Virus record (IMG/VR): IMGVR_UViG_3300031963_000024
Coordinates: 69,753 to 133,752 of that record
Source: a virus
Taxonomy: Duplodnaviria > Heunggongvirae > Uroviricota > Caudoviricetes
Direction: 5' to 3' (one strand)
Length of the DNA stretch: 64,000 bases
The notes under the pieces were generated by a model, which saw only the letters and a program-made list of their open reading frames with translations, searched no databases and was not told the DNA's origin. A program made the translations under genes and the position numbers. The number at the start of each line of letters is the position of its first letter. The first letter of the stretch is position 1. Shown piece by piece: positions 37,603 to 63,120 of this stretch.

Positions 37603-37610
37603 TATCTTTG
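37603..37610 (+). promoter_or_regulatory. Bacteroidetes sigma-A-type -7 element (TATCTTTG) upstream of clpC-like gene
   Basis: TTTATCTTTGTAA matches the TAnnTTTG consensus. This is one of 8 copies of a conserved TATCTTTGTAT motif at gene 5' ends. Confidence 0.55.
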
Positions 37611-37721
37611 TAAAACCAATTATACAAAAATATGCCAAACAAGTAAACCTGACAATATGTCATATTTGTATGTCATTTTGACATTATTGATAATTTAGAA
37701 TAAAAACTTATACTTTAACAT

Positions 37722-39806
37722 ATGATTGAATCACAAGACCAAAACGAAAAGATGGGTGGAAACCGAAAAGGTAAAACAGATACAATTAACTCCAAAACAC
37801 CTGTTTTGGACAATTTTTCTCGTGACCTTATTAAACTAGCAAAAGAAGGCAAACTTGACCCTGTAATTGGTAGGGAACATGAGATTGAAAGATTGGCACA
37901 GATTATTTCAAGAAGAAAGAAAAACAACCCTATTTTGATTGGTGAACCAGGTTGTGGTAAAACCGCAATTGTTGAAGGTTTAGCTATGAAAATATTTCAA
38001 GGAGACTGTCCTCAAAACTTAATTGATAAAAGAATTGTTAGTTTAGATATGACATCAATTGTTGCCGGTACAAAATATCGTGGACAGTTTGAAGAACGTA
38101 TTAAAGTAATACTTGATGAGTTGAGTGATAACCATGATGTTGTCATATTCATTGATGAAATTCACACAATCATTGGTGCTGGAAATTCATCAGGTTCGTT
38201 GGACGCTTCTAATATCTTTAAGCCAGCACTTGCTCGTGGTGAACTCCAGTGTATTGGTGCGACAACCTTAGATGAATACCGTGAACATATTGAAAAGGAT
38301 GGTGCGTTAGAGCGTCGTTTCCAAAAAGTACATGTTGATGCAACATCTATTGAGGACACAATTATAATTATGAATCGTGCCAAAGAAAACTACGAAAAAC
38401 ATCACAAGGTTCATTTTAGTAATGAAGTTATTAAAACTTGTGTAATGTTGGCGGACCGATACATCACTGACCGTGAGTTTCCTGATAAAGCAATTGATAT
38501 TATGGATGAGGTAGGTGCAAGATGTCAAATCAACGTAACCGTTCCTGAAATTATTGAAAAACTTAAAGAGGAAGCAAACCAAATTAAGGACCGTAAAGTT
38601 GAAGTTGTTAGAAGTCAAAAGTACGAAGAAGCTGCGGAATTACGAGATATGGAACGTAAAGTTTTAGCTCGTCTTCAAGAAGAAAAAGAGAAGTTTGAAA
38701 AAGACCGACTAACAAATAAAAAAGAAGTTACCGAAGAAATGGTTTATGAAGTTGTTTCCCAAATGACCAAAATCCCAATTTCAAAACTTTCACAATCAGA
38801 ATCAGATTCGTTAATTAATTTAGAAGAAAGTTTAACCAAAGCGGTTATTGGACAAGAAGATGCGGTATCTAAAATTTCAAAAGCAATCCGTAGGAATCGT
38901 GTAGGTATTAAAGACCCGAATAAACCAATTGGTTCATTTATTTTCTTGGGTTCAACAGGTATTGGTAAAACACATTTGGCTAAACAATTAGCCAAAGAAA
39001 TCTTTGGAAGTTCAGATGCTTTGATTCGTGTAGATATGTCTGAGTATCAAGAAAAATTTACAATGACAAGATTGGTTGGTTCGCCTCCAGGTTATGTTGG
39101 TCACCAAGAAGGTGGACAATTAACTGAACAAGTTAAAAACAAACCTTATTGTGTAATCTTGTTTGATGAAATTGAAAAGGCACACAAAGACGTTTATTCA
39201 CTTTTGCTACAAGCGATGGATGAGGGACATTTGACTGACGGTCTTGGTAGAAAAATCAACTTTAAAAATACCTTGATTATTATGACATCTAACATTGGTG
39301 CTAGAAAAGTACAAGACTTTGGTACTGGAGTTGGATTTGGAACTCGTTCTAAAAATGAAAAAGAAACTGAAATCAAACAAATGATGATTGAGGATGAACT
39401 TAAAAAGTTTTTTCCACCTGAATTTTTGAATCGTGTTGATGATGTTGTTTTCTTTAATTCATTAAAAGAAAATGAAATTAAACAAATTGTTACTTTGGAA
39501 ATTTCTAAATTAATTTTACGATTACGTTCTATGAACTATAACATTGTTATTGATGAAAGTTTGGTTAGTAGAATTTGTGAAGTTGGGTTTGATGAAAAAT
39601 TTGGGGCTCGTCCAATCAAAAGAGCTATCCAAAATCAAATTGAGGATTTTATCTCAGATGAGATTCTTAAGAAGAATATTGTTAATGATTCAGTATATAT
39701 ATTGGAGTTTGTTGATGACAAAGTTCGTATAAAAGAAAAAACATCAGAAATTACTGATGTTTCAGAAAAACCAAAAAGGGGTAGAACAAAAAAAGGGGTC
39801 AATTAA
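37722..39806 (+). CDS. ClpC/ClpB-like double-ring AAA+ unfoldase lacking Clp_N domain
   Basis: D1 module: [15 protein letters not shown], Walker [20 protein letters not shown]. Middle UVR motif [14 protein letters not shown] (ClpC-type). D2 module: [28 protein letters not shown], sensor [11 protein letters not shown] candidate VGF loop (GTGVGFGTR) is present. Confidence 0.85.
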
Positions 39807-39822
39807 GACCCCTTTTTTTTAA
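39788..39822. terminator. Bidirectional rho-independent terminator
   Basis: AAAAAAGGGGTC-AATTAA-GACCCCTTTTTTTT at a convergent junction. Confidence 0.75.
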
Positions 39823-40661
39823 TCCCATAACATCCATCGTTCCGTTTTTGGTTTGTGTTCGTGGAATGTGTGACCCAAACTTTCAATCATTTGTTTTACC
39901 ATCTCAATCGCTGTGAACACATCCTCAATAACAACATACTCATTGGCTGTGTGGTAGTTGTAATAACCACAAGATACATTTAAACAAGCAATGTTGAATT
40001 TTGATGCAATTTGTGAAACGTCAGTGTACGGGTGTTTCATCAATTCATGTTTTTCACCAAAATGTTCATTAAGAAGTGGTCCAACCTTTTCAAAGAAAGG
40101 AGAGTTACGGTCAAAAAGTTTTACACCCCAACAATATTCAGTTACCATCCAAGATTCGGGAGCATCAAACTGAATACAGTAACCAACATTAGAGAAAAAC
40201 TCAGGACTTGCTTTTCGTGAACCGTGACAACCTGTTTCTTCAGATACAAAGAAAGCCGCTTTAATAACGGGGAGTTGTTCAAGGACATCTAAACATGAAT
40301 AGACACCACATTTGTCATCACCACCAATTCCAACAGGGTTACCTGTAACTGCGTGATAAGCCTTAAAGGAATCTTTTAGTTCCCCATGTACGTTTGGGAG
40401 TTGTTCTTCCTCTACAACCATTTCAGTGATTGAGTGGACGGTGTCAGTATGTGCAATAACACATGGATAGACATCTGCCTCACCTTTTGTAACATAAACG
40501 TTACCATACTGGTCAATTGTGTGGTCGTATCCTTTTTCAGTAAAATACTTGTCAAGATACTCAATCATAAGAGTTTCTTGGTAAGTTTTAGTCGGAATAG
40601 AAAGGACTTCTTTTAGGTGTTGAATTTTTTCTGGAGTCATTTGACTACAAAGATACAACAA
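39819..40661 (-). CDS. M20/M28/M42-family zinc metallopeptidase-like protein
   Basis: Metal-ligand motifs VIAHTDTVH, GGDDKCGV and SEETGCHG. Confidence 0.45.
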   Translation of the reverse strand: MLYLCSQMTPEKIQHLKEVLSIPTKTYQETLMIEYLDKYFTEKGYDHTIDQYGNVYVTKGEADVYPCVIAHTDTVHSITEMVVEEEQLPNVHGELKDSFKAYHAVTGNPVGIGGDDKCGVYSCLDVLEQLPVIKAAFFVSEETGCHGSRKASPEFFSNVGYCIQFDAPESWMVTEYCWGVKLFDRNSPFFEKVGPLLNEHFGEKHELMKHPYTDVSQIASKFNIACLNVSCGYYNYHTANEYVVIEDVFTAIEMVKQMIESLGHTFHEHKPKTERWMLWD

Positions 40662-40666
40662 ATATT

Positions 40667-42817
40667 TTAAATTTCAAAAAGTTGATAATTTTTTAACAAA
40701 GAAATTAGTTGTTCAAAAGTTAATGTATATTTTTTAACTTTTGCCGAGTATCCAATATTTTTTTGTATTTTCACGGTTATTGTATTATCAGGTTCCACAC
40801 CAACAATTATAATCTGTGTGTCTTTTAAAGTTGGTATGTCTTTTTTAACATTAAAACCAATCTTATCAACAATGTATGATACTATTTTTTGATATTCTTG
40901 GATATCATCAAATGCGCCATCTTCTTCATCAAATAAGTTTTCATATAATTCATCTAACAATTTTTCGGATTCAGAATTAAACCTTGCGTCAAAAGTATCA
41001 TCATCTTTGTATTCATAATAATTATCAAAAATATCACTTACCGAGATTTCTTCATCAATCGCAGCAGTAATAACGGCTCTAATTGATTTTTGTGGTGAAC
41101 CATATTTTTCATAAAGTGACAACATATTGTCAACCGATGTATAATATTTACGAAAACAAACTTTAGATTCAACACCAATTGGTTCTAAAACATTACAATA
41201 TTCATCATTAACCGCAGCTTCAATTCCAACTGTATACGCATCATTAGTAGCATATTCATATTCTTCCGTCATTTTTTCTTTAAACCAATTGTGTGCGTTT
41301 AAAATTTCAGCACATTTAGAATAATAATCACTCCTATAATTTTTCATCAATTCATCTTTTTGTTGAAATAATTGTGGTGAAATGAGAGTGATAATATTAT
41401 CTAATTTTTCTTTATTTTCTTGATTTAAAGATGTTAAAACATAACCTTCCTTCCAATCTTCCTCGGCAGTATATGAATCAACCCATTCAGTTTGTCTACC
41501 ATAACTATTACCCGCAAATGACTCTAACTGTGATATTGTGTATTCGTATAGTTGATGTTTAAATAATTTAAAATAATCTTCAGGGTCAAAAAATAACATA
41601 ACATTTCCATCAACAATTTCAAAAGTTTCTTCACCACTTGTAATATTAAACGATGCGTCAATTTTATCTTTTTTATAGTTAAGTAATGTTTGATAATCAG
41701 TTCCACCAATGTTTAAAATGTTACTTAATATTTCGTCCATTCCTGGCATTGATGCGTATAACACATCAAAATTTGAACGATTGTCTTGTTGGTCCCATAC
41801 TTCAGGTTTTCCACTTTCAGGTATTCTAATGGCAAATTTTGAATTTCTAATGTTGGTTCCTTTTTTATTGATTACATAAACAAATTTTGAATTTCTAGTG
41901 TAATCGTCAAAGTATCTTGAACTATCTCTTGATGAAACACACCATTTTGTTTCCGCACCATAAACACAAGATGCTTGGTAAGTCATTGGTTGAACAATCA
42001 AATATTTTTGGTCTTCGTATAATTTTCTTGACTCATTCTTGGCTTTTTTAATTTCATCTGTTGTATATGTTCTATTTTTGATTTGACGAAAAAACTCTCT
42101 CATCGCATTTATATCTGGATATGCGTTGATGTCTTTTGGTGATTTAACAATTTTATTATACGACGAACCAAAATTTTCTAAATCACCTCTCTTCAATCTA
42201 TTTGCAAATTCTTCGGTGTCTTTTTTGGAAACTCTTCTATCAATAAAAATCATTATGTCACTAACCTGAGACATTGAATTTAACAAATTAATCCAATCAA
42301 GTTTTTTAATTTCTCTTGCCTGTGATATTACCCAAGGCAAATACTTTTTTGTTGAACTTTCATCACGAGCCCAAAGTGAATCAAATATTTCTTTTTTTAA
42401 ATTTTCATTATCAACATCTTTTCCCCAATCAATATCCAAACTTTTAAAGTCATTATATAAATCAGTTTGTTTATCTTCTCTTAATAACCCCTCAAATAAC
42501 GTTCTTAGGTCCTCTGAAGGACCGTTAAGCATCACGTCAATATAATGTGACGTTTCCTCAGGTTTATCTTCAACACTACCAAGATATTCACTTTTACCAT
42601 TATACTCACAATAAATTCCACCTTCAGGTGTTATGGTTAATGTAAATGTTAATCCGTCACCTTCAATAACATATTGTTCAGTTCCAACATCAGTGTTATC
42701 ATCATATGTACAAGTAATTCTTTCTGTTGGGAAATCAAATTTTCCCAAAATCTCTTGTATTTTAGTAATATAAGAAAAATATGAAGCTGGTTGTCCGAAA
42801 TAACTTATTTGTTCCAT
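40667..42817 (-). CDS. Hypothetical large protein
   Basis: 716-aa ORF. Confidence 0.4.
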   Translation of the reverse strand: MEQISYFGQPASYFSYITKIQEILGKFDFPTERITCTYDDNTDVGTEQYVIEGDGLTFTLTITPEGGIYCEYNGKSEYLGSVEDKPEETSHYIDVMLNGPSEDLRTLFEGLLREDKQTDLYNDFKSLDIDWGKDVDNENLKKEIFDSLWARDESSTKKYLPWVISQAREIKKLDWINLLNSMSQVSDIMIFIDRRVSKKDTEEFANRLKRGDLENFGSSYNKIVKSPKDINAYPDINAMREFFRQIKNRTYTTDEIKKAKNESRKLYEDQKYLIVQPMTYQASCVYGAETKWCVSSRDSSRYFDDYTRNSKFVYVINKKGTNIRNSKFAIRIPESGKPEVWDQQDNRSNFDVLYASMPGMDEILSNILNIGGTDYQTLLNYKKDKIDASFNITSGEETFEIVDGNVMLFFDPEDYFKLFKHQLYEYTISQLESFAGNSYGRQTEWVDSYTAEEDWKEGYVLTSLNQENKEKLDNIITLISPQLFQQKDELMKNYRSDYYSKCAEILNAHNWFKEKMTEEYEYATNDAYTVGIEAAVNDEYCNVLEPIGVESKVCFRKYYTSVDNMLSLYEKYGSPQKSIRAVITAAIDEEISVSDIFDNYYEYKDDDTFDARFNSESEKLLDELYENLFDEEDGAFDDIQEYQKIVSYIVDKIGFNVKKDIPTLKDTQIIIVGVEPDNTITVKIQKNIGYSAKVKKYTLTFEQLISLLKNYQLFEI

Positions 42818-42858
42818 TATAAATAAATACTTTGATTTGGCACTTTGAGATAATATTT

Positions 42859-42866
42859 ATATCTTT
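42859..42866 (+). promoter_or_regulatory. Sigma-A-type -7 element (TATCTTTGTAT) driving the ncRNA candidate
   Basis: TTTATATCTTTGTATAAC, a match to the recurrent motif. Confidence 0.55.
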
Positions 42867-42871
42867 GTATA

Positions 42872-43404
42872 ACAAATCACGGGTGACTCCCTTAATAGTT
42901 AAGGCTGACCTTAAGCATCTGACGCAAGTCTATACAGGGGGCGAAAGTGATTTTAATGTTCTTTGAAAATATGGGGGTGAAATAGAATCGATTGGCGTGG
43001 CTAGTCAATGGATGCACGTATGAGCTGAGTTAACTCATTAAAAACTGATTTAAAAAATTAAACGGCAACGTTTTGAACAAAATGGCAGCTATCGGTTTAA
43101 TCCGTGAAGATGCTTCTGTATTAGCTTAATTGTTAATACAACACAGGTCGGGAGACATATAACCTAGGAACAGAAGTCTTGAAAGATGTGGTTTCTATCT
43201 TAAAAGGAACAAACAGGGTGTAGGACATCCTTTAAGTTCTACCACCGTGGCTGAACGGTGTGAAAATTCAGATATTTTGGATTGTTAGAAAACAATAACC
43301 TAAACGTGTAGTATCTTTTGGTTGGGACGAACAAGACCGCAGGGCGGTACTGCGCACTTCCACTAAACAAATTAAAGTGGTCTAATTTGACCACTTTTTT
43401 TTTT
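42872..43404 (+). ncRNA. Large structured ncRNA candidate (~530 nt), unclassified
   Basis: No ORF of 60 aa or more on either strand over ~600 nt in an otherwise tightly packed genome. GC content is visibly higher than the flanks. Multiple local and long-range helices are present (AAATCAC...GTGATTT; CACCG-TGGCTGAA-CGGTG; CGCAG-GGCGGTA-CTGCG). It is bounded by an upstream promoter motif and a strong terminator. Confidence 0.5.
43376..43404 (+). terminator. Rho-independent terminator
   Basis: GTGGTC-TAATTT-GACCAC followed by T10. Confidence 0.75.
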
Positions 43405-43424
43405 GTAAATTAAAAAAATTGTCG

Positions 43425-43432
43425 TATCTTTG
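43425..43432 (+). promoter_or_regulatory. Sigma-A-type -7 element (TATCTTTGTAT), TTTG about 20 nt upstream as a possible -33
   Basis: GTCGTATCTTTGTATTG. A TTTG at ~43402 gives the Bacteroidetes -33/-7 spacing. Confidence 0.55.
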
Positions 43433-44205: not shown

Positions 44206-44241
44206 GATAAGTGTTTGATACTTCGGTATCAAATACTTATC
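44206..44241 (+). other. Perfect 16-bp stem-loop with UUCG tetraloop (processing/stability element or U-tract-less terminator)
   Basis: GATAAGTGTTTGATAC-TTCG-GTATCAAATACTTATC with one G.U pair. No trailing U-tract. Confidence 0.5.
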
Positions 44242-44255
44242 ATTACACAAAGTAT

Positions 44256-44765
44256 ATGGAAAAAGTATTAGTATTAAACAGCGATTACACACCCTTGAAC
44301 GTAACAACAATGCGTAGAGGATTTGTATTGGTTGATAAAGGTAAAGCTGAGGTATTGAAGAAGGATGAGAATCCCATTATTACCACTATTGGTAACTTTG
44401 TAAGACCTATCATCATTAGATTGCTCAGTTATATCAGAATTAAGAAAAACGCTAAAGATATCAAGATTTCCCGTTCACGAGTTTATCAAAGGGACGATTA
44501 TGCTTGTGTATATTGTGGAGGATTAAAGAAATTAACGATTGACCATGTCATACCAAAATCTCGTGGTGGTGATAACACTTGGGAAAACATGGTCACTTGT
44601 TGTTTTGATTGTAACTCAAGGAAGGGGAGTAAGACACCTGAAGAGGCTGGTCTGAAATTTAGGGTTCGTCCTTATAGACCCTCCGTTTTTTCTGAATTGG
44701 TTGCAGGTCGTGCCGCACATATTTGGGAAGAGTTTCAACAAGACTTCTTTAGTTATCCAAAATAA
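44256..44765 (+). CDS. HNH endonuclease (McrA-like)
   Basis: Start moved to MEKVLVLN (ATG at 44256), downstream of the hairpin. HNH motif YACVYCGG...LTIDHVIPKSRGGDNTWENMVTCCFDCNSRKG. Confidence 0.85.
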   Translation: MEKVLVLNSDYTPLNVTTMRRGFVLVDKGKAEVLKKDENPIITTIGNFVRPIIIRLLSYIRIKKNAKDIKISRSRVYQRDDYACVYCGGLKKLTIDHVIPKSRGGDNTWENMVTCCFDCNSRKGSKTPEEAGLKFRVRPYRPSVFSELVAGRAAHIWEEFQQDFFSYPK

Positions 44766-44770: not shown

Positions 44771-44778
44771 TATCTTTG
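44771..44778 (+). promoter_or_regulatory. Sigma-A-type -7 element (TATCTTTGTAT) upstream of tRNA-Leu
   Basis: TTCTTATCTTTGTATAAG. The predicted TSS falls a few nt before the tRNA 5' end. Confidence 0.55.
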
Positions 44779-44792: not shown

Positions 44793-44878
44793 GCTTGGGT
44801 GGCGGAATAGGTAGACGCGCTGGACTTAAAATCCAGTGAACAGTAATGTTCGTACGGGTTCGATTCCCGTCTCAAGTA
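44793..44878 (+). tRNA. tRNA-Leu (anticodon UAA), type II with long variable arm
   Basis: Acceptor GCTTGGG/CTCAAGT (two G.U pairs). D-arm GCGG-AATAGGTAGA-CGC. Anticodon arm CTGGA-CTTAAAA-TCCAG. Long variable arm. T-arm ACGGG-TTCGATT-CCCGT. Discriminator A. No encoded CCA. Confidence 0.8.
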
Positions 44879-44887
44879 CTAAAAGAA

Positions 44888-44910
44888 AAAGGTGTCTCAC
44901 GACACCTTTT
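44888..44910 (+). terminator. Rho-independent terminator after tRNA
   Basis: AAGGTGTC-TCAC-GACACCTTTTCTT. Confidence 0.7.
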
Positions 44911-45588: not shown

Positions 45589-45610
45589 AACTATAAATAT
45601 ATGGTTGTAA

Positions 45611-46915: not shown

Positions 46916-46920
46916 GATAA

Positions 46921-48243
46921 TTATTGTTCAAGATATTTAAAACTGTTGCCGTCCTCAGTGTATTTATAATCAACACCATTTACATCTGTTACAATATAAA
47001 CATTACCTTCTTTATTGAATTTTTCTTTACCAGTGTAGTCAGCTCCCCAATCTTTTTTAATAAATTCTTTAAAATTAAATAATGGGTCAACCTTCTGTAT
47101 TTGTTTTTTACCTTTATCCCACAATTTATTAGCCGATTCCATTGAAATGTTTTCAGATAGCATATCTTTGGTATCCGATAAGAATGTTGCTGGTAACCAA
47201 AGTGGTGTGTAAAAAAACTTCATACCAATTTTACTTATAAAGTATTCTTGCCATTCAGTTAAAGCAACTTCTTTTTGGGTGTCAGTCATTGTTTCCCATT
47301 CAGGATACTTGGTGTTAACCCATTTTGTAAAAAGTGCATCTTTAATTCTTAAACTCTGAATTATTGAGTATCCGCTAATTACTAACCCGATTGTAAAATA
47401 CCACTGTAGTACTCCTGTCAATTTATTACCTTCAAATTTATAATTTTTCAAAAACTTAGTTATCCATGATGTTTTATAATTTGCTGGTAACTCATCATAA
47501 ATTTTTTGAATATCATTGGTTAAATATGTTAAAACATTTTCATATGTGGGTTCGTTAACATTTTTAACAATTTTATTATATAAACCATCTAAAAACTCTT
47601 GAGCATTTCTTTTTTTAGTTATTGCATTAAATTGGTCTTTTGTATTTGGGTCGGTAAGTAATTCAACTAAAGCATCATCTGCGTTTTTAGTTATTGTATT
47701 TTTACCAACTTTGATTTCTTCGTATACCCAATTAAATATTTTTTTCTGTGTTAGAATAGATGGGTCAGTTAAAAGTGAGTTTGTAATTTTTTTAATATTT
47801 ACTATGTCTTCTATACCTACTTTTTTCAAAAATAATTTAAAGTCATCGTATTCTAGAGCTCCTAAATCTTTAAGTAATGGTTTGTTTATTAATAAATTAT
47901 CAACAAAAGTTTTTTCTAATTTAGTATTGCTATTTATTAATTTTAAAAATTTTGATATTGCGTCTTCTTTAGTTGAAGTAGCTAATTCAGAAACTATTTT
48001 ACTAGCTCTTGCAAATTCATCATCAACATTTGTTATATTTTTACCTAAATTAGGAAACTCAGTCAAAAAATCATCAATTGAATTTGCGAACACATTTTTT
48101 TCGGCTCTTGAAAATGTTTTAATTCCTGATAGTACGTTATCTAATACACTTAAAACTGTTGGGAGTAATCCTTCAGCTTCCGTTATCAACATCAATTCTC
48201 TATATCTTTTGATTTCACTAATAATATTTTGTTTCATAATCAT
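46921..48243 (-). CDS. Hypothetical protein
   Basis: 440-aa ORF. Confidence 0.4.
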   Translation of the reverse strand: MIMKQNIISEIKRYRELMLITEAEGLLPTVLSVLDNVLSGIKTFSRAEKNVFANSIDDFLTEFPNLGKNITNVDDEFARASKIVSELATSTKEDAISKFLKLINSNTKLEKTFVDNLLINKPLLKDLGALEYDDFKLFLKKVGIEDIVNIKKITNSLLTDPSILTQKKIFNWVYEEIKVGKNTITKNADDALVELLTDPNTKDQFNAITKKRNAQEFLDGLYNKIVKNVNEPTYENVLTYLTNDIQKIYDELPANYKTSWITKFLKNYKFEGNKLTGVLQWYFTIGLVISGYSIIQSLRIKDALFTKWVNTKYPEWETMTDTQKEVALTEWQEYFISKIGMKFFYTPLWLPATFLSDTKDMLSENISMESANKLWDKGKKQIQKVDPLFNFKEFIKKDWGADYTGKEKFNKEGNVYIVTDVNGVDYKYTEDGNSFKYLEQ

Positions 48244-48261
48244 ATAAATATATTGTAAAAG

Positions 48262-50543: not shown

Positions 50544-50552
50544 TATTGTATA

Positions 50553-50885
50553 TTATTCGTATTCTGCGGGTGGAATTTTGTCAGGGTAAACAATATAAAA
50601 TTCATTTAGAAATGACATAAGTTCATCTTCATCCAAATATTCAGGGAACTCGTTGTTAATTTCTAATGAATCTTCTTCAAATAACCAGTCAGTAACTGGC
50701 GCTAAGTAATCGTATCCAAACTCTTCAAAGAAGTTGTTTTCAATTACATCTGTCCTAACCATGTCTTCTTCATCATTCATTAATCTAAAGGTGACTTCAG
50801 TAATGTTTTCGGATTGGTGGTAGGAAATAATTTCTACTATTTCCATTTTGTTTTGTTGTAAAAAATATTTATCTTTGCTTATCAA
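50553..50885 (-). CDS. Hypothetical acidic protein
   Basis: 110-aa ORF. Confidence 0.4.
   Translation of the reverse strand: MISKDKYFLQQNKMEIVEIISYHQSENITEVTFRLMNDEEDMVRTDVIENNFFEEFGYDYLAPVTDWLFEEDSLEINNEFPEYLDEDELMSFLNEFYIVYPDKIPPAEYE
50870..50877 (+). promoter_or_regulatory. Sigma-A-type -7 element (TATCTTTG)
   Basis: ATATTTATCTTTGCTTATC, about 50 nt upstream of the + ORF at 50929. Confidence 0.45.
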
Positions 50886-50928
50886 AATATCTTAATAATT
50901 TACAAAAGACACATTAAACCAAAAAAAT

Positions 50929-51141
50929 ATGTTATTTAAAAAAACTAAAACCGAACCAAATTTGATTGAATTTCGTAAAGCTTGTGTTGTTATTAACTCT
51001 TGTAAGACCTATGCTCAATTAAAAATTGCAATTAATTATGCAAATCTTTATTACGTCAAAAATAAAGATTTTACCACCCACCAACATTTAATGAAATTGG
51101 TGTCCAAAAAACTTCAAGAAACGAAATTAGTTAAAGTTTGA
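50929..51141 (+). CDS. Hypothetical small protein
   Basis: 70-aa ORF downstream of the promoter motif. Confidence 0.35.
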   Translation: MLFKKTKTEPNLIEFRKACVVINSCKTYAQLKIAINYANLYYVKNKDFTTHQHLMKLVSKKLQETKLVKV

Positions 51142-52359: not shown

Positions 52360-52652
52360 GTTTTACAATAGATTTAGATGAATATGCCGAAGGTGCCATT
52401 TTGTTAGATGGACTTGAGGAGGCAATTATTGGAATTGTTGAGGAATTTGGAAATGGTAGACGAATCTTATATTCTAAACCAAAAATACTATCAATATTAT
52501 GTGAAAGAGATTTGATGACAATGGGTGAGGCCGAAGAATTTTACGATTATAACATTTTAGGTTTACATGCTGGTGAACAAAATGCGGTATTCCTTGATGT
52601 TGATGTGTCCGTAAAAAAAACAGGAGAAGGTTACAAGTATTTGGTTAGTTAA
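52356..52652 (+). CDS. Hypothetical protein
   Basis: ATGA-coupled ORF. Confidence 0.35.
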   Translation: MSFTIDLDEYAEGAILLDGLEEAIIGIVEEFGNGRRILYSKPKILSILCERDLMTMGEAEEFYDYNILGLHAGEQNAVFLDVDVSVKKTGEGYKYLVS

Positions 52653-52663
52653 AATTTTAATAC

Positions 52664-52671
52664 TATCTTTG
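52664..52671 (+). promoter_or_regulatory. Sigma-A-type -7 element (TATCTTTG), leaderless configuration
   Basis: ACTATCTTTGTGGTATG. The ATG at 52676 is about 5 nt after the motif. Confidence 0.5.
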
Positions 52672-53853: not shown

Positions 53854-56800
53854 ATGAAAAAATTATTACTTTTAATGATGTTCTTGTTCAGTTTTTTAAC
53901 TGTTCAGGCAACCCACATGATGGGTGCAGATGTTTCCTACAAATGTTTAGGAAATGGAAAGTACAAAATAATTGCTAAAGTTTACCGAGATTGTAGAGGT
54001 GTGTCTATGGGTACACCGTCATTTGGCACTTATGCAGGATTAAATGGTGGAAATGGATGTGGTAGTTACACATTAAGTGGACTATCAAGGGTTTCAATTA
54101 AAGACGTAACAACAAGATGTTCAACAAGTAGTAATCCATGTGGTACCGCAAATTCCGCCTTTGCGAATAAAGGTGTTGAAGAACACACATTTGAAGCCAC
54201 GATTGATTTTAATACGTCACCATTAAACAATTTTGTAAATAAATCAACATGTTGTGAGGTTACATTTTATGTGAATGAGTGCTGTAGAAATGGTGGTATT
54301 ACAACAGGACAGTCAAATCAAAACTTTTACGCCACGGCAATGGTTAACATTTGTAACCTTCAAAAAATGAAGAACAAGTGTAACAGTTCACCACAATTAT
54401 CTAACCCACCTATTGCCTTTTTATGTTGTAATCAACCTTGGTATTACAATAATGGTGCGACTGACACAATAGATTATGATTCAATTTCATATAAGTTAGT
54501 AAATGGGCTTCAGGGTATTCCTAACAGTTCAGTTTCATATTCATCACCATTTACTGCTAGAGTGCCTATGACACCGTATTGTGTACCACCAACGACAATT
54601 AACTGTACACCAAACCCAAAAACAAACCCACCAAGAGGTTTTTATTTTGATACAACAAATGGTGATATTATTACAACACCAACCAAATGTGATGAATCTG
54701 CGGTTATATGTGTTGAACAAACTGAATGGAGAAAAGACACGTCTGGTGTATGGCGTGTAATTGGTAGAACAAGACGTGACATGCAGGTATGGGTTAGGGA
54801 TGATTGTGGATATAACAAAGCACCGACTTTGGGTCCCAAGTTTACTTACAAAGTATGTGAGGGTGAAACTTTGAAGTTTAAGGTTGAATCTGATGATGAA
54901 ACTTTTACACCATATCAGACAACTCCTGATACAACAACAATGAAATGGAACAACGGTATTCCTGGCGCGAAGTTTACATTGGCGAATAAGAGTGATTGGC
55001 CAGAAAAAAGAAAGTCTTACGCAAACTTTGAATGGACACCGCCAATTGGTTCGGCTTCTGATATATCATATTCATTTACAGTTACCGTTAGTGACGAACA
55101 CTGTGAACCACCAGCAACATCAATTCGTTCATTTAAGATTAAGGTAAATCCAAAACCTACATCAAAACGTAGATATACCCAATTAAAATGTGGAAGGTTC
55201 GCCATGGAAGCGTATGAGTTATATGCCGCAACAAGTTATTCATGGAGTGTTAGAGATACTTTGGCGAACGAGTTATTTTACTCTTCAAAGAAAACCGATA
55301 CCATGAATTACTATTATGAAGGTAAGTATATTATCATTCATAAATTAACAAGTGCCCAATCATGTGTTACGATTTATAGTGATACCGTTTATTTAACCCA
55401 ACCACCAAAAGTTGTATTGGCAGATGCTGATAGTTTTGCTTGTAAAGAAACTACATTTACATTGAAGGCTAAAGTAATTGCTGGTAAACCTACTTTGAAA
55501 TACAAATGGAATAATGGTGATACCACCGATTTCACAACGATTAAAAACTTCAAATCTGATTCAACGTTGATGTTGGAAGTAACTGATGGTGATGGTTGTA
55601 AGTTCCGTGATACCACATTAACATTTGTTAAACCACTACCTGTTATTACTTTCGGTTCAGATAAGGTTATCTGTACGTATGAAACTAATACATTTGATGG
55701 TCAAAACAATGACACGGTAAAATACTTGTGGAGTACGGGTGATACAACTCGTTACATGACAACAAACCTAAAAGGTAGTTATTGGGTTAGAATTACTGAT
55801 ACGACATATCAGTGTGTGAAGTATGACACGGCAATACTTGTTGTGAATGATACTGTCATATCTAATGCTGGACCTAACCAATCAATATGTGATAAAGATA
55901 CATTCACCTTGACTGCCAATCATAAACCAACATCATTGACTCCTACATATACTTGGGGTGGATTAGGGAATTTATCAACCTATAAGTTAAAATCTGATAT
56001 TACAAAGTTAACTTATATGTTTACATTGAAGACGGTGTTGACTCAAAACGGGCACACTTGTGAAGATATGGATACAATTTTTGTAAGGGTTAAACCATTA
56101 CCAAAAATTGGTTGGGACCCAAAACCATTGAAACCTCAATGTTATTCTTATGGTAGTGTATGGATGGAACCATTCTTGGTTAAACCTCATAACTTTGGAA
56201 CATATGAAATATGGAGCGGAAACAAAAATAAAATAGGAAACATTGTTACGAATCCATCTAACGGAAGGTTCCTATTCAACACAATATCAGTAGATAATAG
56301 TAAATTACAAGGAGGTAATAACTTTACTACAAAAGTTTATGTTAAGTTTAACGATACAAATGGTTGTTCAAACATGGATTCAACAACACAAACAATATAT
56401 GGTACACCCATTATCCAATTAAGAAAGGCGACAGTATGTCAAGATATTGGGTCAATGATGATGGACAATTTGAGAGTAAGACCAGCAACCAAAAATGGTG
56501 TGAACATGTTATGGGAAGTTGTTAGAGCACCTAATGGTGTGGACACATCTAAACTACTTTATAATATTTCTACGAACTCAATTCCAAACATTAGATTTAA
56601 CTTTGGTGCACCTTCACAGGATTATTACAAAGGTTTGTACACTTTCAAACTTACCGTTAAAGATTTAATTACGGGTTGTCAAAGTACCGACACTGTTGAT
56701 GTAAATATCATTACAGAACCTAAAGTTGAATTGACAACCATACCTCTTTATTGTGAAAATTCAGGTGTGAGTATTAATTTATTTGATTACATTTTGGTGG

Positions 56801-58389
56801 ATGGTGTTAAACCTACTCAAGGTACCATCTTTATTCAGGATAGGAATGGTGATAGAAATGACCCTAAAGTATCTACAGATATATCAACAGGTATATTCAA
56901 AACTAGTATAGGTGTAGGTAATTATAACATTAAGTTTGTAAGTAACCTTATAGCTCCTGACCATTCAGTTACTTGTTCAAGAGTGGATAGTTTTGATGTG
57001 ATTATTAGTTATAAACCTGACCTGAAAGTAATAGGTATGGGTTTTTGTTCAACATATCCTTGGCCATATGAATTGAAAAATGTAATAACCGATGGTAGTT
57101 GGGGTGTGACAAAAATCACTTACCCTGATGGGGGACTTTTTACACCAACACCGAAGGCTAAAGGATATATCGGAGGTTTTAATAATCCTTACAAACTTAT
57201 GATGGTTGGTGAAAGTCAATATGGTTGTAAAGATACTGAGATATTAAAACTAACAGTAATGAACCAACCTGAAATTAAGTTTGTTCCACCATTTGTGAGT
57301 TGTGGTAAAGATACTTGGACTCTAAAATTAGACACTGCAAACATTGACTCCGCAGTTAAATTCAGATGGGTAGTTAATACTAATCTTTATGATACTCTAA
57401 CACCTCCTGGTGGTCAAATGATTGGTAACAAAAGAGGTTTTGGTAAAAAACAATACGTACCATCTGATAATGATACTGCAAGAGGATACTTTACGGTTAA
57501 ATTCAAATCTTGGGACGCACCACTTTGTGCTAGAGTAATTGACAGTGTCAAGATTTTAATCACACCTTATCCTGAACCTGACTTCACCACAACAAATGGA
57601 TGTCAACCACATTTTTCAACATTCACACCGACTGAAAAACGCGGAATTAAATCAATTGAGTATTCGTGGGTTGTAAATGATACATTCTTACTAAGAGATA
57701 ATTTTAGTTGGTCAAAAACTTTTAATAACTTTGGTTATTATAGAACATCATTAACAGCGGTTAATAACACGTTCTTTCCTGAAAAGATATGTGGAACATC
57801 TATAACAAAAACATTTGAAGTTTATCCAAAACCAAGTGTTGTGTTTACTACTGACCCATTGTACAAAACAACGGTGGCATTACCTAAGTTTAAAACTATT
57901 AATACATCAAGTGTTAGTCAGAATCCATTTGTGACTAATATGAAGTACAATTGGACTTGGGGTAAATTATTTAAGATTGGTAGTGATACATTTAAGAATT
58001 CAAACATTGTATTTGGTAAAGATACGGGAACTTATTGGATTAAGTTAGTTGTTACAACAGATAAAGGATGTAAAGACTCAACAATTAGTAGAGTACTAAT
58101 TGGGCCTGACATAATTGTGTTTGTTCCTGACGCTTTCACACCTGACAATGCAGGTCCAAATGAAAACAATACATTCAAACCATTCGTTATTAATAATAAA
58201 ACATACGAAATGTTAATCTTTAACCGTTGGGGAGAAAAAATGTTTGAAACAACTGACCTTTCAAAAGGATGGGATGGAAACTATTTGGGTAAACCAGCAC
58301 CCGATGGTGTATATGTGTATAAGATGATTGTAACTTCATTGGAAGATAAGGTTTTCCAATATAATGGAACTTTTACATTATTAAGATAA
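53854..58389 (+). CDS. SprB-repeat adhesin-like protein with signal peptide and T9SS type-B (gliding motility-associated) C-terminal sorting domain
   Basis: Signal peptide MKKLLLLMMFLFSFLTVQA. Cys-rich N-terminal domain. Several degenerate SprB-like repeats (KYKWNNGDTTDFTTIKNFKSDSTLMLEVTDGDGCKF; KYLWSTGDTTRYMTTNLKGSYWVRITDTTYQCVKY; KYNWTWGK...TYWIKLVVTTDKGCKD). C-terminal 90 aa VPDAFTPDNAGPNENNTFKPF...IFNRWGEKMFETTDLSKGWDGNYLGKPAPDGVYVYKMIV matches the TIGR04131/CHU_C T9SS CTD-B consensus. Confidence 0.8.
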   Translation: MKKLLLLMMFLFSFLTVQATHMMGADVSYKCLGNGKYKIIAKVYRDCRGVSMGTPSFGTYAGLNGGNGCGSYTLSGLSRVSIKDVTTRCSTSSNPCGTANSAFANKGVEEHTFEATIDFNTSPLNNFVNKSTCCEVTFYVNECCRNGGITTGQSNQNFYATAMVNICNLQKMKNKCNSSPQLSNPPIAFLCCNQPWYYNNGATDTIDYDSISYKLVNGLQGIPNSSVSYSSPFTARVPMTPYCVPPTTINCTPNPKTNPPRGFYFDTTNGDIITTPTKCDESAVICVEQTEWRKDTSGVWRVIGRTRRDMQVWVRDDCGYNKAPTLGPKFTYKVCEGETLKFKVESDDETFTPYQTTPDTTTMKWNNGIPGAKFTLANKSDWPEKRKSYANFEWTPPIGSASDISYSFTVTVSDEHCEPPATSIRSFKIKVNPKPTSKRRYTQLKCGRFAMEAYELYAATSYSWSVRDTLANELFYSSKKTDTMNYYYEGKYIIIHKLTSAQSCVTIYSDTVYLTQPPKVVLADADSFACKETTFTLKAKVIAGKPTLKYKWNNGDTTDFTTIKNFKSDSTLMLEVTDGDGCKFRDTTLTFVKPLPVITFGSDKVICTYETNTFDGQNNDTVKYLWSTGDTTRYMTTNLKGSYWVRITDTTYQCVKYDTAILVVNDTVISNAGPNQSICDKDTFTLTANHKPTSLTPTYTWGGLGNLSTYKLKSDITKLTYMFTLKTVLTQNGHTCEDMDTIFVRVKPLPKIGWDPKPLKPQCYSYGSVWMEPFLVKPHNFGTYEIWSGNKNKIGNIVTNPSNGRFLFNTISVDNSKLQGGNNFTTKVYVKFNDTNGCSNMDSTTQTIYGTPIIQLRKATVCQDIGSMMMDNLRVRPATKNGVNMLWEVVRAPNGVDTSKLLYNISTNSIPNIRFNFGAPSQDYYKGLYTFKLTVKDLITGCQSTDTVDVNIITEPKVELTTIPLYCENSGVSINLFDYILVDGVKPTQGTIFIQDRNGDRNDPKVSTDISTGIFKTSIGVGNYNIKFVSNLIAPDHSVTCSRVDSFDVIISYKPDLKVIGMGFCSTYPWPYELKNVITDGSWGVTKITYPDGGLFTPTPKAKGYIGGFNNPYKLMMVGESQYGCKDTEILKLTVMNQPEIKFVPPFVSCGKDTWTLKLDTANIDSAVKFRWVVNTNLYDTLTPPGGQMIGNKRGFGKKQYVPSDNDTARGYFTVKFKSWDAPLCARVIDSVKILITPYPEPDFTTTNGCQPHFSTFTPTEKRGIKSIEYSWVVNDTFLLRDNFSWSKTFNNFGYYRTSLTAVNNTFFPEKICGTSITKTFEVYPKPSVVFTTDPLYKTTVALPKFKTINTSSVSQNPFVTNMKYNWTWGKLFKIGSDTFKNSNIVFGKDTGTYWIKLVVTTDKGCKDSTISRVLIGPDIIVFVPDAFTPDNAGPNENNTFKPFVINNKTYEMLIFNRWGEKMFETTDLSKGWDGNYLGKPAPDGVYVYKMIVTSLEDKVFQYNGTFTLLR

Positions 58390-58607: not shown

Positions 58608-59333
58608 ATGAAAAAAATAATATTATCGCTCGTTTTAGTTGGTATGATTGGTTTTATGGGTTGTGAAAAAGAACCTATACCAACACCAAACCCAACAGTT
58701 AATCTTTTGGTAGATGAAGAACCAAACGCTGTAGTAGATTCTATGGGTACCGTTATCTTTGATAACCCAATGACATCTGACATAACACCAACAACTGATG
58801 CAACAATAATGGATTATCCATTATTTTTGGATTACGACCCATTTACAATGGTTACATCAAGAACTGGTAAAATTGATTCTTGTGTAAAAGGTATTGAAGT
58901 TACAAAGGCCGAAAAAGAACTTTTAACTAAGGCTCATTTAAATAAAGTTGAATGTCAAAAACAAAACAAAATAATTGTTGCAAGAATTAATAGAGAAATT
59001 GAAGGTTGGGCTAAAACACAAAAATATAATTATTATGTAAATTGGTATATGGTTGAAAAATCAAAATTAGATTATGATTTAAAAATGGGTGTAATAACTG
59101 AATCCCAATATAAAGAAAAACTTACCACTTTAGAAAAAACATGGAAAAGTAAAATGTCCTATTTAAATAATCAGGTAAAAGAAAAAATCAAAACAAGTTT
59201 GGATAGAGCAACTGCGTGTGGTAAAATAAAAGATTGTGAAAAGGAGTATCTACATAAGGTGTTAGATATACTTGGTAAATCAAGATATAAGAAATGGATG
59301 GAGTGTCACAAACATAACTACAAAAAGAAATAA
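58608..59333 (+). CDS. Lipoprotein, paralogous N-terminus to preceding gene
   Basis: Lipobox GFMGC followed by the same EKEPIP motif. 241 aa. TATAAATA lies about 8 nt upstream. Confidence 0.5.
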   Translation: MKKIILSLVLVGMIGFMGCEKEPIPTPNPTVNLLVDEEPNAVVDSMGTVIFDNPMTSDITPTTDATIMDYPLFLDYDPFTMVTSRTGKIDSCVKGIEVTKAEKELLTKAHLNKVECQKQNKIIVARINREIEGWAKTQKYNYYVNWYMVEKSKLDYDLKMGVITESQYKEKLTTLEKTWKSKMSYLNNQVKEKIKTSLDRATACGKIKDCEKEYLHKVLDILGKSRYKKWMECHKHNYKKK

Positions 59334-60071: not shown

Positions 60072-60079
60072 TATCTTTG
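60072..60079 (+). promoter_or_regulatory. Sigma-A-type -7 element (TATCTTTGTAT), leaderless configuration
   Basis: TTTATTATCTTTGTATTGTG. The CDS appears to start at a GTG at 60084. Confidence 0.5.
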
Positions 60080-60083: not shown

Positions 60084-61115
60084 GTGTTACCTAAATTAAA
60101 CAAATATCACAATGATGGACTGTTATATAAACAGACACATCCTACATTACCGTTAACCATATGGAATTATACACCAGCGGTTCAATACGGTGAAAAGTGG
60201 GATGAAGTAACTTTACAGTGCCGTGGTTTAGTGACTGGTACTGAAGGTAATGTAGTTGCAAGACCATTTAAAAAATTCTTCAACATAGAAGAAAACAAAC
60301 ACACACCTACCCAAGATTTTGAGGTATTTGATAAGATGGATGGTTCATTGGGAATCATATTCAAGTACAATGGTGAAATGATATGTGCCACTCGTGGTTC
60401 TTTTACCTCAGACCAATCAAAGTGGATGAGTGAGTTCGCTCAAAAGTACAATTACCAAGACATCATAGTTGAAGGGTTCACTTATTTGTTTGAAATCATC
60501 TACCCTGAAAATAGAATAGTTGTTAATTATGATGGTCAAGAAAGATTGGTATTGTTAGGTATCATCAATACTGAGACAGGTGAAGAACTTCCACACAATG
60601 AGTTGTTTGAAGGGTTTGACGTTGTCAAAAAATACGATGGAGTTCGGGATTATTCCGAATTAAAGGGTAAAGTTGAGCAAAACTCTGAAGGATTTGTTGT
60701 TCGTTTTTCTAACGGAGACCGAATGAAAATTAAAGGTGAGGAATATCTACGACTTCATAAGATAATGACAAATGTATCAACCACTGGTGTTTGGGAATTG
60801 TTATCTAATGGTGGCGACATCAATGAGTTCTTAAAGGACGTACCTGATGAATTTTATAAGAAAGTAAAAGATTATGCGGATTTATTGAAGTATGGGTTTT
60901 ACCGAGTATCTGAAGATTGTGGAAAGGCACACTATTACTTCAGATATGGAAAATATAGTGATAAAGAAATTGAACCAACTAAAAAACAGTTCGCAGAACA
61001 TGTTATGAATCATGGACATCCACCATACAGAGCGGTGATGTTCGCCATGTGGGATGGAAAACCTTATGATAAATTGATATGGAACATAATAAAACCAGAA
61101 TGGAAGAAACTGTAA
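60084..61115 (+). CDS. RNA ligase, T4 Rnl1 family
   Basis: LQCRGLVTGTEGNVVARPFKKFFNIEENKH...VFDKMDGSLGIIFKYNGEMICATRGSF aligns with T4 RnlA [31 protein letters not shown]...[25 protein letters not shown]. This covers motif I (KxDGS) and the KS.GS block. The start is inferred as a GTG. Confidence 0.75.
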   Translation: MLPKLNKYHNDGLLYKQTHPTLPLTIWNYTPAVQYGEKWDEVTLQCRGLVTGTEGNVVARPFKKFFNIEENKHTPTQDFEVFDKMDGSLGIIFKYNGEMICATRGSFTSDQSKWMSEFAQKYNYQDIIVEGFTYLFEIIYPENRIVVNYDGQERLVLLGIINTETGEELPHNELFEGFDVVKKYDGVRDYSELKGKVEQNSEGFVVRFSNGDRMKIKGEEYLRLHKIMTNVSTTGVWELLSNGGDINEFLKDVPDEFYKKVKDYADLLKYGFYRVSEDCGKAHYYFRYGKYSDKEIEPTKKQFAEHVMNHGHPPYRAVMFAMWDGKPYDKLIWNIIKPEWKKL

Positions 61116-61975: not shown

Positions 61976-62233
61976 ATGTTTAACAAATTTTATAAATTAG
62001 ATTTTGGACTACAAATGATTATCACTTGTCTTGTCCTATTTTTTTCAAACCAACTTGTGTCATACACATTGAGTATGGCTAACGTTCCTAGTACAGTATC
62101 ATTTAACGTGGGTGTTGTACTAACATTTATATTGTTTTTACTCCAAACAATATCAATTTATCTTGGAGCAATGGGAATTATTAACTACATAAAACAAACA
62201 AAAACAAAAAATAAAGATGAGCAATCTAACTAA
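61976..62233 (+). CDS. Small two-TM membrane protein with charged C-terminus (holin-like topology)
   Basis: Two hydrophobic helices followed by a KQTKTKNKDEQSN tail. Topology only; no homology claimed. Confidence 0.3.
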   Translation: MFNKFYKLDFGLQMIITCLVLFFSNQLVSYTLSMANVPSTVSFNVGVVLTFILFLLQTISIYLGAMGIINYIKQTKTKNKDEQSN

Positions 62234-63071
62234 ACTTCTAATCGGAGTATCGGTACTGGTACTTTTGATTTTCGGGTTCACGGGATGTGAACGAATTGAC
62301 GCAGGACACGTAGGTGTTAAAGTAAATCTTTACGGTGATGGTAAAGGTGTTGATGATGTAACTGAGGTTACAGGATGGGTATTGTATAACCCGATTTCAA
62401 CCAAAATTGTTGAATTCCCAACTTATGTTCAACATAAAGAATATAAAAAAACTGAAGACGGTGTTGATGAATCTTTTGTGGTAAACTCTAAAGACGGTTC
62501 CGAGTTCCATTGTTCACCAATGGTAAACTACGCAGTAAAACGTGAAAAGGTTCCTTATATATTTGCAAAATATCGTGTTGAGTTGGACCGAATTGAAGAA
62601 GGTTTCTTAAAGACATCTATCTTTGATGCGTTCCGTGTGGTAGCAAATAGTTACACAGCAGACGCTCTTATATCTAATAGACAAGAGTTTGAAATCAAAG
62701 TCCGACAGGTATTGGAAAAACAATTATCACCTGAAGGATTTGTATTACAACAATTTACATCAAACTTAGTTTACCCTGAAACATTTAAGAAAGCGATTGA
62801 GGCTAAGAACAACGCTGTACAATCGGCACTTATGGCGGAAAATCAAGTTAAAACCGCTGAAGCACAAGCAAGAATTAAAATTGCAACCGCTGAAGGTAAT
62901 GCACAGGCTTTGTTGACAAACGCAAGGGCTGAGGCGGAATCTAACAAATTGAGACAACAAACTTTAACACCGTTGTTGCTTCAACAAATGTGGATTGAAA
63001 AATGGGAAGGTAATGTTCCAAGTACTGTTCTCGGAAGTAACCAAAACCTAATGTTTGGATTAAATAAGTAA
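62217..63071 (+). CDS. SPFH/band-7 (prohibitin/HflK-like) lipoprotein
   Basis: N-terminal LLIFGFTGC lipobox-like signal. SPFH core. C-terminal Ala/Glu-rich heptads (AIEAKNNAVQSALMAENQVKTAEAQARIKIATAEGNAQALL). Confidence 0.55.
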   Translation: MSNLTKLLIGVSVLVLLIFGFTGCERIDAGHVGVKVNLYGDGKGVDDVTEVTGWVLYNPISTKIVEFPTYVQHKEYKKTEDGVDESFVVNSKDGSEFHCSPMVNYAVKREKVPYIFAKYRVELDRIEEGFLKTSIFDAFRVVANSYTADALISNRQEFEIKVRQVLEKQLSPEGFVLQQFTSNLVYPETFKKAIEAKNNAVQSALMAENQVKTAEAQARIKIATAEGNAQALLTNARAEAESNKLRQQTLTPLLLQQMWIEKWEGNVPSTVLGSNQNLMFGLNK

Positions 63072-63079
63072 AAAAAAAT

Positions 63080-63110
63080 AACCCGGGATGTAAAAGTCTC
63101 GGGTTTTTTG
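63080..63110 (+). terminator. Rho-independent terminator
   Basis: AAAAAAAATAACCCGGGATG-TAAAAGT-CTCGGGTTTTTTG. Confidence 0.65.
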
Positions 63111-63112
63111 TT

Positions 63113-63120
63113 TATCTTTG
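63113..63120 (+). promoter_or_regulatory. Sigma-A-type -7 element (TATCTTTGTAA)
   Basis: GTTTATCTTTGTAACAT. The ATG is about 10 nt downstream. Confidence 0.5.

Follow-up and report, generated by a model that had tools for sequence, protein, structure and literature searches.

What function is served by a short sequence, TATCTTTG, that recurs in front of genes and RNAs of an uncultured phage? The question is raised by a 64,000-nucleotide (nt) stretch of viral DNA, positions 69,753–133,752 of IMG/VR record IMGVR_UViG_3300031963_000024, which we call the window and whose own numbering is used for all coordinates. A sequence-only reading of this DNA had proposed that the octamer is a host-type promoter box marking an early gene set, part of which is expressed from leaderless mRNAs. 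Our analysis indicates that the boxes are probably promoters for the primary sigma factor (sigma-A) of the host, that they head units of accessory genes, and that several of the resulting mRNAs would carry no leader.

The octamer occurs 13 times on the two strands of the window, as against 4.38 ± 2.26 copies in dinucleotide-shuffled sequences, and none of 100 shuffles reaches 13. The chance expectation of about two to three copies per strand given by the sequence-only reading agrees with these shuffles. All eight of the + strand positions that it listed exist (the one placed at 42859 is actually 42860), but the + strand carries 11 copies rather than eight, and the − strand carries two. Nine copies are intergenic, eight on the + strand and one on the − strand (40655..40648), and all nine have the same orientation as the next gene or RNA. 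By our own gene map, these nine of the 13 copies fall within 2,041 intergenic bases, just 3.2% of the whole stretch (P ~2e-11 by a binomial and by a Fisher test); the equal frequency in coding and intergenic DNA that had been named as a counter-indication is thus not what we observe.

The earlier statement that every copy is intergenic does not hold, because four lie inside open reading frames (ORFs), at 47163..47170, 58754–58761 and 62618–62625 on the + strand and at 20759–20766 on the − strand. Four is the number expected from the shuffles, and these chance copies lack the GT flank, the −33 element described below and a downstream gene start; the three on the + strand are followed by GG or GA instead of GT. 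Conservation of the flank TTTATCTTTGTAT, also noted before, is partial: GT follows the box in eight of the nine intergenic copies and GTA in seven, but the full GTAT in just four, and the copy at 40655..40648 has TAG next to the box. The looser pattern TAnnTTTG is unenriched across the whole window (136 matches versus 116.5 ± 11 expected), so that only the TC variant carries the signal, and it does so in intergenic DNA.

Sigma-A promoters of Bacteroidota have the consensus −33 TTTG / −7 TAnnTTTG (PMC6847099, PMC9723704, PMC7366714). By sequence, the boxes qualify as the −7 elements of such primary-sigma promoters (sigma-A, also termed sigma-ABfr), arranged as TTTG-N19/20-TATCTTTG(TA), which upholds the original assignment to the −7 consensus. 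The pattern TAnnTTTG, or in its narrower form TAHHTTTG, is matched by the nine intergenic copies and by one variant, TATTTTTG. An exact TTTG lies 19–20 nt upstream of the box, within the ~19–21 nt of the known promoters, in five of the nine. A profile of TAHHTTTG sites close to genes (361 unique sites in 306 related IMG/VR loci, labelled L001, L002 and so on) also reveals a −33 TTTG, with a spacer that is A-rich and whose length peaks sharply at 19–20 nt. The three T positions of this element carry T in 57–81% of sites and its G position carries G in 41–62%, and a T follows the final G of the box in 74–81%. A full-text literature search for the octamer returned only primer noise. We call promoters of this architecture class A.

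All nine boxes are kept at orthologous positions in related IMG/VR phages. The core TA..TTTG and its spacing are fixed, whereas NN, the flanks and the neighbouring sequence drift, which is the signature of a functional element. For example, TAnnTTTG lies 17–29 nt 5′ of the ATG of a DUF6011 gene in all 79 loci with upstream sequence (TATCTTTG itself in 63 of them), and this conservation extends down to 47% protein identity. Likewise, the box is separated by four nucleotides from the start codon of an RNA ligase gene, mostly ATG, in about 59 of 77 related loci, with NN and the four spacer bases varying.

PHROGs scans of the window, which belongs to a large phage and has a G+C content of ~31%, identified genes for a large terminase of gp17 type, portal, major head protein and head protease, with nucleotide-metabolism genes at 1–14 kb. 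The closest cultured terminase is that of a Flavobacterium phage (28% identity), and a megablast of 37–61 kb against INPHARED phages gave zero matches. Relatives in IMG/VR comprise hundreds of contigs, some up to ~335 kb, of which IMGVR_UViG_3300032328_001047 and 3300033076_000972 show 91–98% identity at the protein level. A 1,511-amino acid (aa) protein encoded at 53854–58389 (+) has PKD domains and a C-terminal CHU_C sorting signal of the type IX secretion system (T9SS). A Shine–Dalgarno core precedes only two of 68 genes, and gene-upstream regions are 47% A and 8% G. A scan for sigma-70-type −35/−10 promoters found 63 sites versus 72 expected at 37–52 kb, and thus no enrichment, and a modest surplus of weak matches at 52–64 kb (81 versus 58.2 ± 8.5 expected), on which grounds such promoters were rejected as an explanation. 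The CHU_C domain, the terminase match, the scarcity of Shine–Dalgarno cores, the sigma-70 result for 37–52 kb and the promoters themselves together indicate a Bacteroidota host. A scan of a genome collection with the Clp protein was uninformative as to host, because its top match was a 327-kb contig of a Flavobacteriales metagenome-assembled genome and the rest came from many phyla. The 1,511-aa phage protein is apparently targeted to the host T9SS; 5′ of its gene there is only an off-register TA-N3-TTTG (TACCTTTTTG), downstream of a terminator.

The spacing between box and start codon bears on the second part of the proposal. In Flavobacterium johnsoniae, the −7 element spans −12 to −5 and transcription starts 4–5 nt after it (PMC6847099). 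Within the window, the class A promoter at 52640..52671 (+) consists of TTTG at 52640–52643, a 20-nt spacer and TATCTTTG at 52664–52671, and ends 4 nt 5′ of the ATG at 52676, where a unit begins that encodes a metallophosphoesterase (52676–53326) and an AAA_33 kinase (53319–53759), with a hairpin and T-run before 53854. The box at 60072..60079 (+) lies 4 nt 5′ of the GTG at 60084 that opens a gene for a T4 Rnl1-type RNA ligase (60084–61115), in a unit that probably extends to a terminator at 63080–63105. Directly after this terminator, the box at 63113..63120 (+) lies 9 nt 5′ of a 58-aa ORF that opens with the ATG at 63130; next comes a gene for a weakly matching CYTH domain (63323–63784). A fourth close pairing, whose promoter was overlooked in the sequence-only reading, is on the − strand at 40648..40678 (TTTG 40678..40675, 19-nt spacer, TATCTTTG 40655..40648), with the ATG of an M20-peptidase-like gene (40640..39819) 7 nt 3′ of the box.

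Because Bacteroidota RNA polymerase starts 4–5 nt after the final G of the box, this geometry supports phosphoesterase and ligase mRNAs whose 5′ end would be the start codon itself, and which would so be leaderless, and the M20 and 58-aa ORF mRNAs would have leaders of ~2–5 nt. The proposal of leaderless or near-leaderless messages thus stands on geometry, with a 4-nt gap that equals the published offset of the transcription start site and is kept across relatives. Among related loci, 130 of 734 boxes lie 4 nt from the first ATG of a long ORF and 30 more lie at 5 nt, as against two for a control motif, and in a filtered set the spike at 4 nt contains 131 of 570 sites. Sites with the 4-nt geometry precede members of 51 protein clusters, including SmpB-like and CCA-adding-enzyme-like genes, and the 4–5 nt class dominates 36 of 187 families (19 of 69 among those with at least two independent contexts). 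The 4-nt gap of the phosphoesterase is shared by 12 close relatives and by 20 of 25 unique box-bearing contexts of the family; the M20 box and its 7-nt gap are retained in six diverse relatives; and the terminator–box–ATG order of the 58-aa ORF, with a gap of 7–9 nt, is retained in L081, L083, L085 and L150.

The commonest distance from box to start codon in the group would give a 5′ untranslated region (UTR) of ~16–19 nt. In cellular Bacteroidota, a UTR under 10 nt was reported for 3.7% of Bacteroides thetaiotaomicron mRNAs (PMC7366714), short or absent leaders for 5.5% in Flavobacterium psychrophilum (PMC9723704) and leaders of more than 10 nt for 87% of predicted transcripts in F. johnsoniae (PMC6847099). 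The share of box-proximal phage families with a start codon at the predicted +1 (~19–28%) is suggestive of an excess over these bacteria, the methods differing such that the comparison is rough. Literature searches for transcripts of the leaderless kind, in Bacteroidota or in crAss phages, yielded nothing pertinent.

Another motif with a fixed orientation, (A/G)TATTTAT(A/T), which we call class B, lies 5′ of terminase, portal, head-protease and scaffold/capsid-operon genes. It precedes gene starts at 14493, 18826, 27015 and 58608 on the + strand and at 21949, 25366, 26420, 28233, 30088, 31895, 36029, 36813, 37076, 42817, 45588 and 48243 on the − strand, in all cases 3–4 nt or 10–33 nt 5′ of the ATG. 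The genes that start at 42817, 45588 and 48243 are unannotated, and PHROG scans of the − strand genes at 44950–51831 gave no functional matches. Across 307 sequences (the 306 related loci plus the window), class B motifs form a spike 3–4 nt before the ATG and a second peak at ~12–15 nt, and they are without a −33 TTTG; the copy before the terminase gene is conserved in relatives of at least 78% identity. Class B is a candidate phage-specific (late?) promoter, which would also yield leaderless mRNAs. A late role is tentative, for in the Flavobacterium phage immuto the motif stands after terminators in a non-structural region. A late promoter of T4 type was considered and rejected: the T4 box TATAAATA occurs 18 times in the window versus 10.4 expected, with most intergenic matches on the ‘wrong’ strand, and its sense orientation has no distance spike, the motif on the coding strand being TATTTAT(A).

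The two classes are partitioned by gene module. Class A and class B sites number 35 and 91, respectively, around terminase genes, and 134 and 52 around RNA-repair genes (P=9e-15), and this split supports the view that the TATCTTTG boxes form a class apart from that of the structural genes. T4 and T4-like cyanophages use strong host-sigma early promoters before phage factors redirect the polymerase (PMC2984593). By analogy, expression of class A most likely sets in as soon as infection begins (early or pre-late), because its promoters would need only the host enzyme and because the structural genes carry a different motif. Of the claim that the box identifies the early class, the coherence of the set survives, as does its separation from the genes with TATTTAT(A); the box would mark at most part of an early class, because an operon at 1–14 kb has none within the window.

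In the model that we favour, the host RNA polymerase holoenzyme would read the boxes without a phage factor, and each box would head a short accessory transcription unit, several of them with an intrinsic terminator at the boundary, the T-run of which, together with a G, could serve also as a −33 element. The nine proposed units comprise the Clp/Hsp100 gene, the M20-like gene, a transfer-messenger RNA (tmRNA), the DUF6011 and HNH genes, a tRNA-Leu, a 70-aa ORF, the phosphoesterase and kinase genes, the Rnl1-type ligase with its downstream genes, and the 58-aa ORF with the CYTH gene. Ten proteins encoded downstream of boxes were scanned against Pfam.

The first box, at 37603..37610 (+), lies 111 nt 5′ of the ATG of the Clp/Hsp100-type AAA+ gene (37722–39806), whose product has two AAA+ domains, and has TTTT at −33 rather than an exact TTTG. 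It is retained in L342–L344 and L351; L346, L348 and L352 have a proximal box 6 nt 5′ of the ATG instead. Facing it is the variant class A box TATTTTTG at 37625..37632 (−), with TTG at a 20-nt spacer, which lies 47 nt 5′ of a leftward gene (37577..37122) that is followed by a strong terminator at 37121..37089; in relatives this box reads TATTTTTG, TAATTTTG or TATATTTG. The predicted starts of the two facing promoters are ~5 nt apart. The control region of the Clp gene (37603–37721) also contains two conserved palindromes, TGACAATATGTCA (37650–37662) and TGTCATTTTGACA (37671–37683), which sit inside the 105-nt leader of that gene and overlap the −33 region of the TATTTTTG promoter that points leftward (37632..37625). 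To judge from its layout, this control region looks like an operator-controlled switch.

The promoter at 42836..42867 (+), composed of TTTG at 42836–42839, a 20-nt spacer and TATCTTTG at 42860–42867, is followed by a leader of ~100 nt and then by what had been described as a large noncoding RNA. This RNA is a tmRNA (42973..43365, +; Rfam RF00023, 53.6 bits, with a gathering score of 47), with an intrinsic terminator at 43374–43397 downstream. Homologues in relatives score up to 100.8 bits against the same family; ARAGORN did not call the tmRNA at 42973–43365, and a search of IMG/VR for an exact 46-mer of it found none. Its acceptor stem has a G3:U pair, the predicted tag ends in ...ASVLA, and relatives also carry an SmpB-like gene. 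The upstream box is retained in L001, L002, L004 and L007. An insert of ~85 nt between box and tmRNA 5′ end (window 42868–42972) is present here and in L001 and L002, with a different sequence in L002, and is missing in L004 and L007, in both of which 22 nt separate box and tmRNA. No Rfam family matches the insert, whose predicted fold is a closed stem (−22.6 kcal/mol, z = −1.4); folding of three long leaders gave z values of −1.4 to +0.3, none of them significant.

Immediately downstream, the promoter at 43402..43432 (+) has as its −33 element a TTTG (43402–43405) that is the end of the terminator T-run, followed by a 19-nt spacer and TATCTTTG at 43425–43432. The likely start of the DUF6011 gene is the ATG at 43453, 20 nt after the box, and the gene runs to 44193, followed by an HNH endonuclease gene (44211–44765); the TTG at 43435 is merely the mechanical first start of this ORF. 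Neighbours of the DUF6011 gene in relatives include a GOLLD RNA (L016, 5187–5597, 304.8 bits) and an array of ~25 tRNA genes (L030, 3740–9931). The box at 44771..44778 (+) lies 14 nt 5′ of tRNA-Leu(TAA) (44793–44879), which has a terminator downstream (44887–44910); L004 has TATATTTG 22 nt 5′ of the orthologous tRNA, and L007 has no box there. The promoter at 50847..50877 (+), with TTTG at 50847–50850, a 19-nt spacer and TATCTTTG at 50870–50877, lies 51 nt 5′ of the 70-aa ORF (50929–51141), and both box and leader sequence are retained in L002, L161, L005 and L006. That 51-nt leader (50878–50928) is conserved in sequence and predicted to be unstructured (minimum free energy of 0 kcal/mol).

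The metallophosphoesterase and AAA_33 kinase (52676–53759), the Rnl1-type ligase (60084–61115) and tRNA-Leu (44793–44879) together make up an RNA-repair toolkit, and a second polynucleotide-kinase-like ORF is present at 2276–2698. This set is reminiscent of the Pnkp/Rnl1 defence of T4 against anticodon nucleases. In the more distant relatives L195, L197, L200 and L184–L194, phosphoesterase orthologues are preceded, after a terminator, by TATATTTA, in which the final G is replaced by A and which lies 4 or ~17 nt 5′ of the ATG. It may represent a form of the −7 box used by phages with other hosts. Elsewhere in the window, a 642-nt stretch (4339–4980) has no ORF in the gene set and no credible Rfam match, yet its sequence resembles that of coding DNA, and an atypical start or a shift of frame may hide a gene there. 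Rfam searches of the tmRNA leader and of 4300–5000 at a relaxed threshold found nothing credible.

Several observations weigh against the reading of the boxes as host sigma-A promoters of early, partly leaderless units. Four of the nine window copies have TTTA, TTTC, TTTT or nothing at −33. All nine have NN=TC, although sigma-A has no such need and relatives vary. This uniformity could be a strength optimum or lineage-specific homogenization, and it leaves room for an extra specificity factor. No class A box within the window serves the operon at 1–14 kb, although nucleotide-metabolism genes are typically early or middle ones, and the box therefore does not define the early class as a whole. 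Gene-proximal class A boxes are likewise missing from the first 50 kb of immuto, the nearest cultured relative. The GTG at 60084 is the sole possible ligase start 5′ of the KxDG motif and is shared with the closest relatives, most other relatives having ATG at the same position. In Escherichia coli, leaderless mRNAs that begin with GUG are poorly translated, and a leaderless ligase message should by analogy fare no better; a leadered one may arise by read-through out of the gene before it.

These points bear on the alternatives to differing degrees. The boxes may instead be host-type promoters of autonomous, moron-like accessory cassettes, mobile units that are active constitutively or throughout infection and form no temporal class. 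As a description of the boxes this is equally valid, and as an account of their expression it is a serious, if not a probable, contender. It fits the punctuation of the region, where terminators directly precede promoters (43374–97 and 43425; 63080–105 and 63113) or close units (44887–910; after 53759), as well as the accessory content (tmRNA, tRNA, RNA repair, Clp and HNH) and a neighbourhood that in relatives varies in tRNA arrays, GOLLD RNA and SmpB. Yet cassettes of this kind are compatible with early expression, and constitutive and early-only promoters look the same at the level of sequence. In T4, the tRNA, pnk and rnl genes are transcribed early.

A different possibility is that host polymerase acts together with a phage sigma or specificity factor that prefers the extended sequence TATCTTTGTA, such that the class is phage-controlled and not purely host-driven early. 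The uniform NN=TC of the window boxes speaks for such a factor, as TC accounts for just 41–59% of sites in related phages; TA comes next in seven of the nine, and the window has no intergenic TAnnTTTG with another NN close before a gene, save that at 37632 (−). We nevertheless consider this unlikely, because orthologous promoters in relatives exchange TATC, TATA, TACC, TAAC and TATT as would be expected of the unconstrained ‘nn’ of sigma-A, and because the entire TTTG-N19/20 architecture is the host consensus. Moreover, no sigma-like or gp55-like gene was found among 50 window proteins scanned against PHROGs or the ten box-downstream proteins scanned against Pfam, ~20 mostly small ORFs being unscanned and the window being part of a genome.

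Where a box abuts a start codon, it could also be a translation-initiation or mRNA-processing signal within a longer transcript, in which case the mRNAs would not be leaderless. Bacteroidota do without Shine–Dalgarno sequences and use AT-rich upstream signals (PMC6847099), and the ligase gene, with its GTG start, lies 18 nt after a co-directional gene with no terminator between them, so that read-through probably exists. However, sites with leaderless geometry carry the −33 TTTG at 19–20 nt as leadered sites do, an element needless for translation, which argues that the box there is a promoter rather than a translation signal. The fixed 4-nt gap equals the published distance from box to transcription start (PMC6847099), and many sites in relatives directly follow terminators, all of which makes this explanation quite improbable. 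That the boxes recur as a functionless by-product of AT-rich intergenic DNA (~31% G+C, with TAnnTTTG near its expected frequency) is effectively refuted by the shuffles, the intergenic concentration, the strict orientation, the conservation down to 47% protein identity and the absence of a start-distance spike for the control motif.

We therefore retain sigma-A promoters heading accessory units as the best explanation of the boxes. A broader proposal, which we advance tentatively, is that a widespread clade of large Bacteroidota phages from fresh water runs a two-class programme, one class comprising sigma-A promoters of the form TTTG-N19/20-TAnnTTTG and the other a phage-specific, −10-only TATTTAT(A), with many truly leaderless genes in both, the octamer lying 3–4 nt before the ATG. 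If true, this would suggest that the phages exploit an alternative, 70S-type initiation in a phylum that is Shine–Dalgarno-less and in which leaderless mRNAs are otherwise rare, and would define a new late-promoter specificity. In either case, the analysis yields a conserved promoter map of uncultured large Bacteroidota phages, with nine transcription units and their terminators, and corrects the annotation (the tmRNA, the DUF6011 start at 43453 and the ligase GTG at 60084). The promoters are compact and strong candidate parts for Bacteroidota genetics. The rule of box, four nucleotides and ATG predicts leaderless messages for ~36–51 gene families in the phage group, such that leaderless translation in this phylum becomes directly testable, and the second motif offers a handle on the switch to structural-gene expression.

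Among known systems, the closest counterpart is the sigma-ABfr promoter, which was defined in Bacteroides fragilis and confirmed in F. johnsoniae, F. psychrophilum and B. thetaiotaomicron (PMC6847099, PMC9723704, PMC7366714). The phage promoters share with it a −7 octamer that fits TAHHTTTG, a −33 TTTG at 19–20 nt and an A/T-rich spacer, and their UTR mode of ~16–19 nt is near the ~23-nt mode reported for Bacteroides. They differ in being phage-borne, in the NN=TC of all nine window copies and in having apparently more start codons at the predicted +1, a rough comparison between differing methods. The early promoters of T4 and T4-like cyanophages (PMC2984593) are similar in that numerous short accessory-gene units begin with a host-type consensus promoter, the structural genes having a motif of their own that lacks a −35-type element. 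Kinship with T4 is limited to the gp17-type terminase (~25% identity), early timing here being assigned by analogy, and no homologues of gp55, gp33, AsiA or MotA were found in the window. In T4 itself, the genes for tRNA, polynucleotide kinase and RNA ligase are early. We dropped the label ‘T4-like phage’ except for the terminase, because the replication genes of immuto are not T4-like.

The T4 late promoter, TATAAATA, which depends on gp55 and has no −35 element, resembles class B in its A/T-only octamer, in the absence of a −33 element and in its association with structural genes. In contrast, class B does not contain the T4 box but its reverse complement, stands mostly 3–4 nt from the ATG and has no gp55-like gene identified with it in the window. 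For leaderless messages, PMC5312081 and PMC7366714, citing Brock et al. 2008, describe mRNAs such as lambda cI from PRM that are translated from a 5′-terminal AUG. Of the four close starts here, those at 52676, 40640 and 63130 are ATG and that of the ligase at 60084 is GTG. As with lambda cI, the promoter is placed such that the A of the start codon would be the first base transcribed, and there is no Shine–Dalgarno sequence; the differences are that the likeness here is one of geometry, in a phylum with leaderless mRNAs reported to be rare, and that one case would begin with 5′-GUG. Host-type phage promoters and leaderless phage mRNAs are both known already. What is new is the promoter map of an uncultured clade, a strict and widespread rule of box, four nucleotides and ATG, and a second motif.

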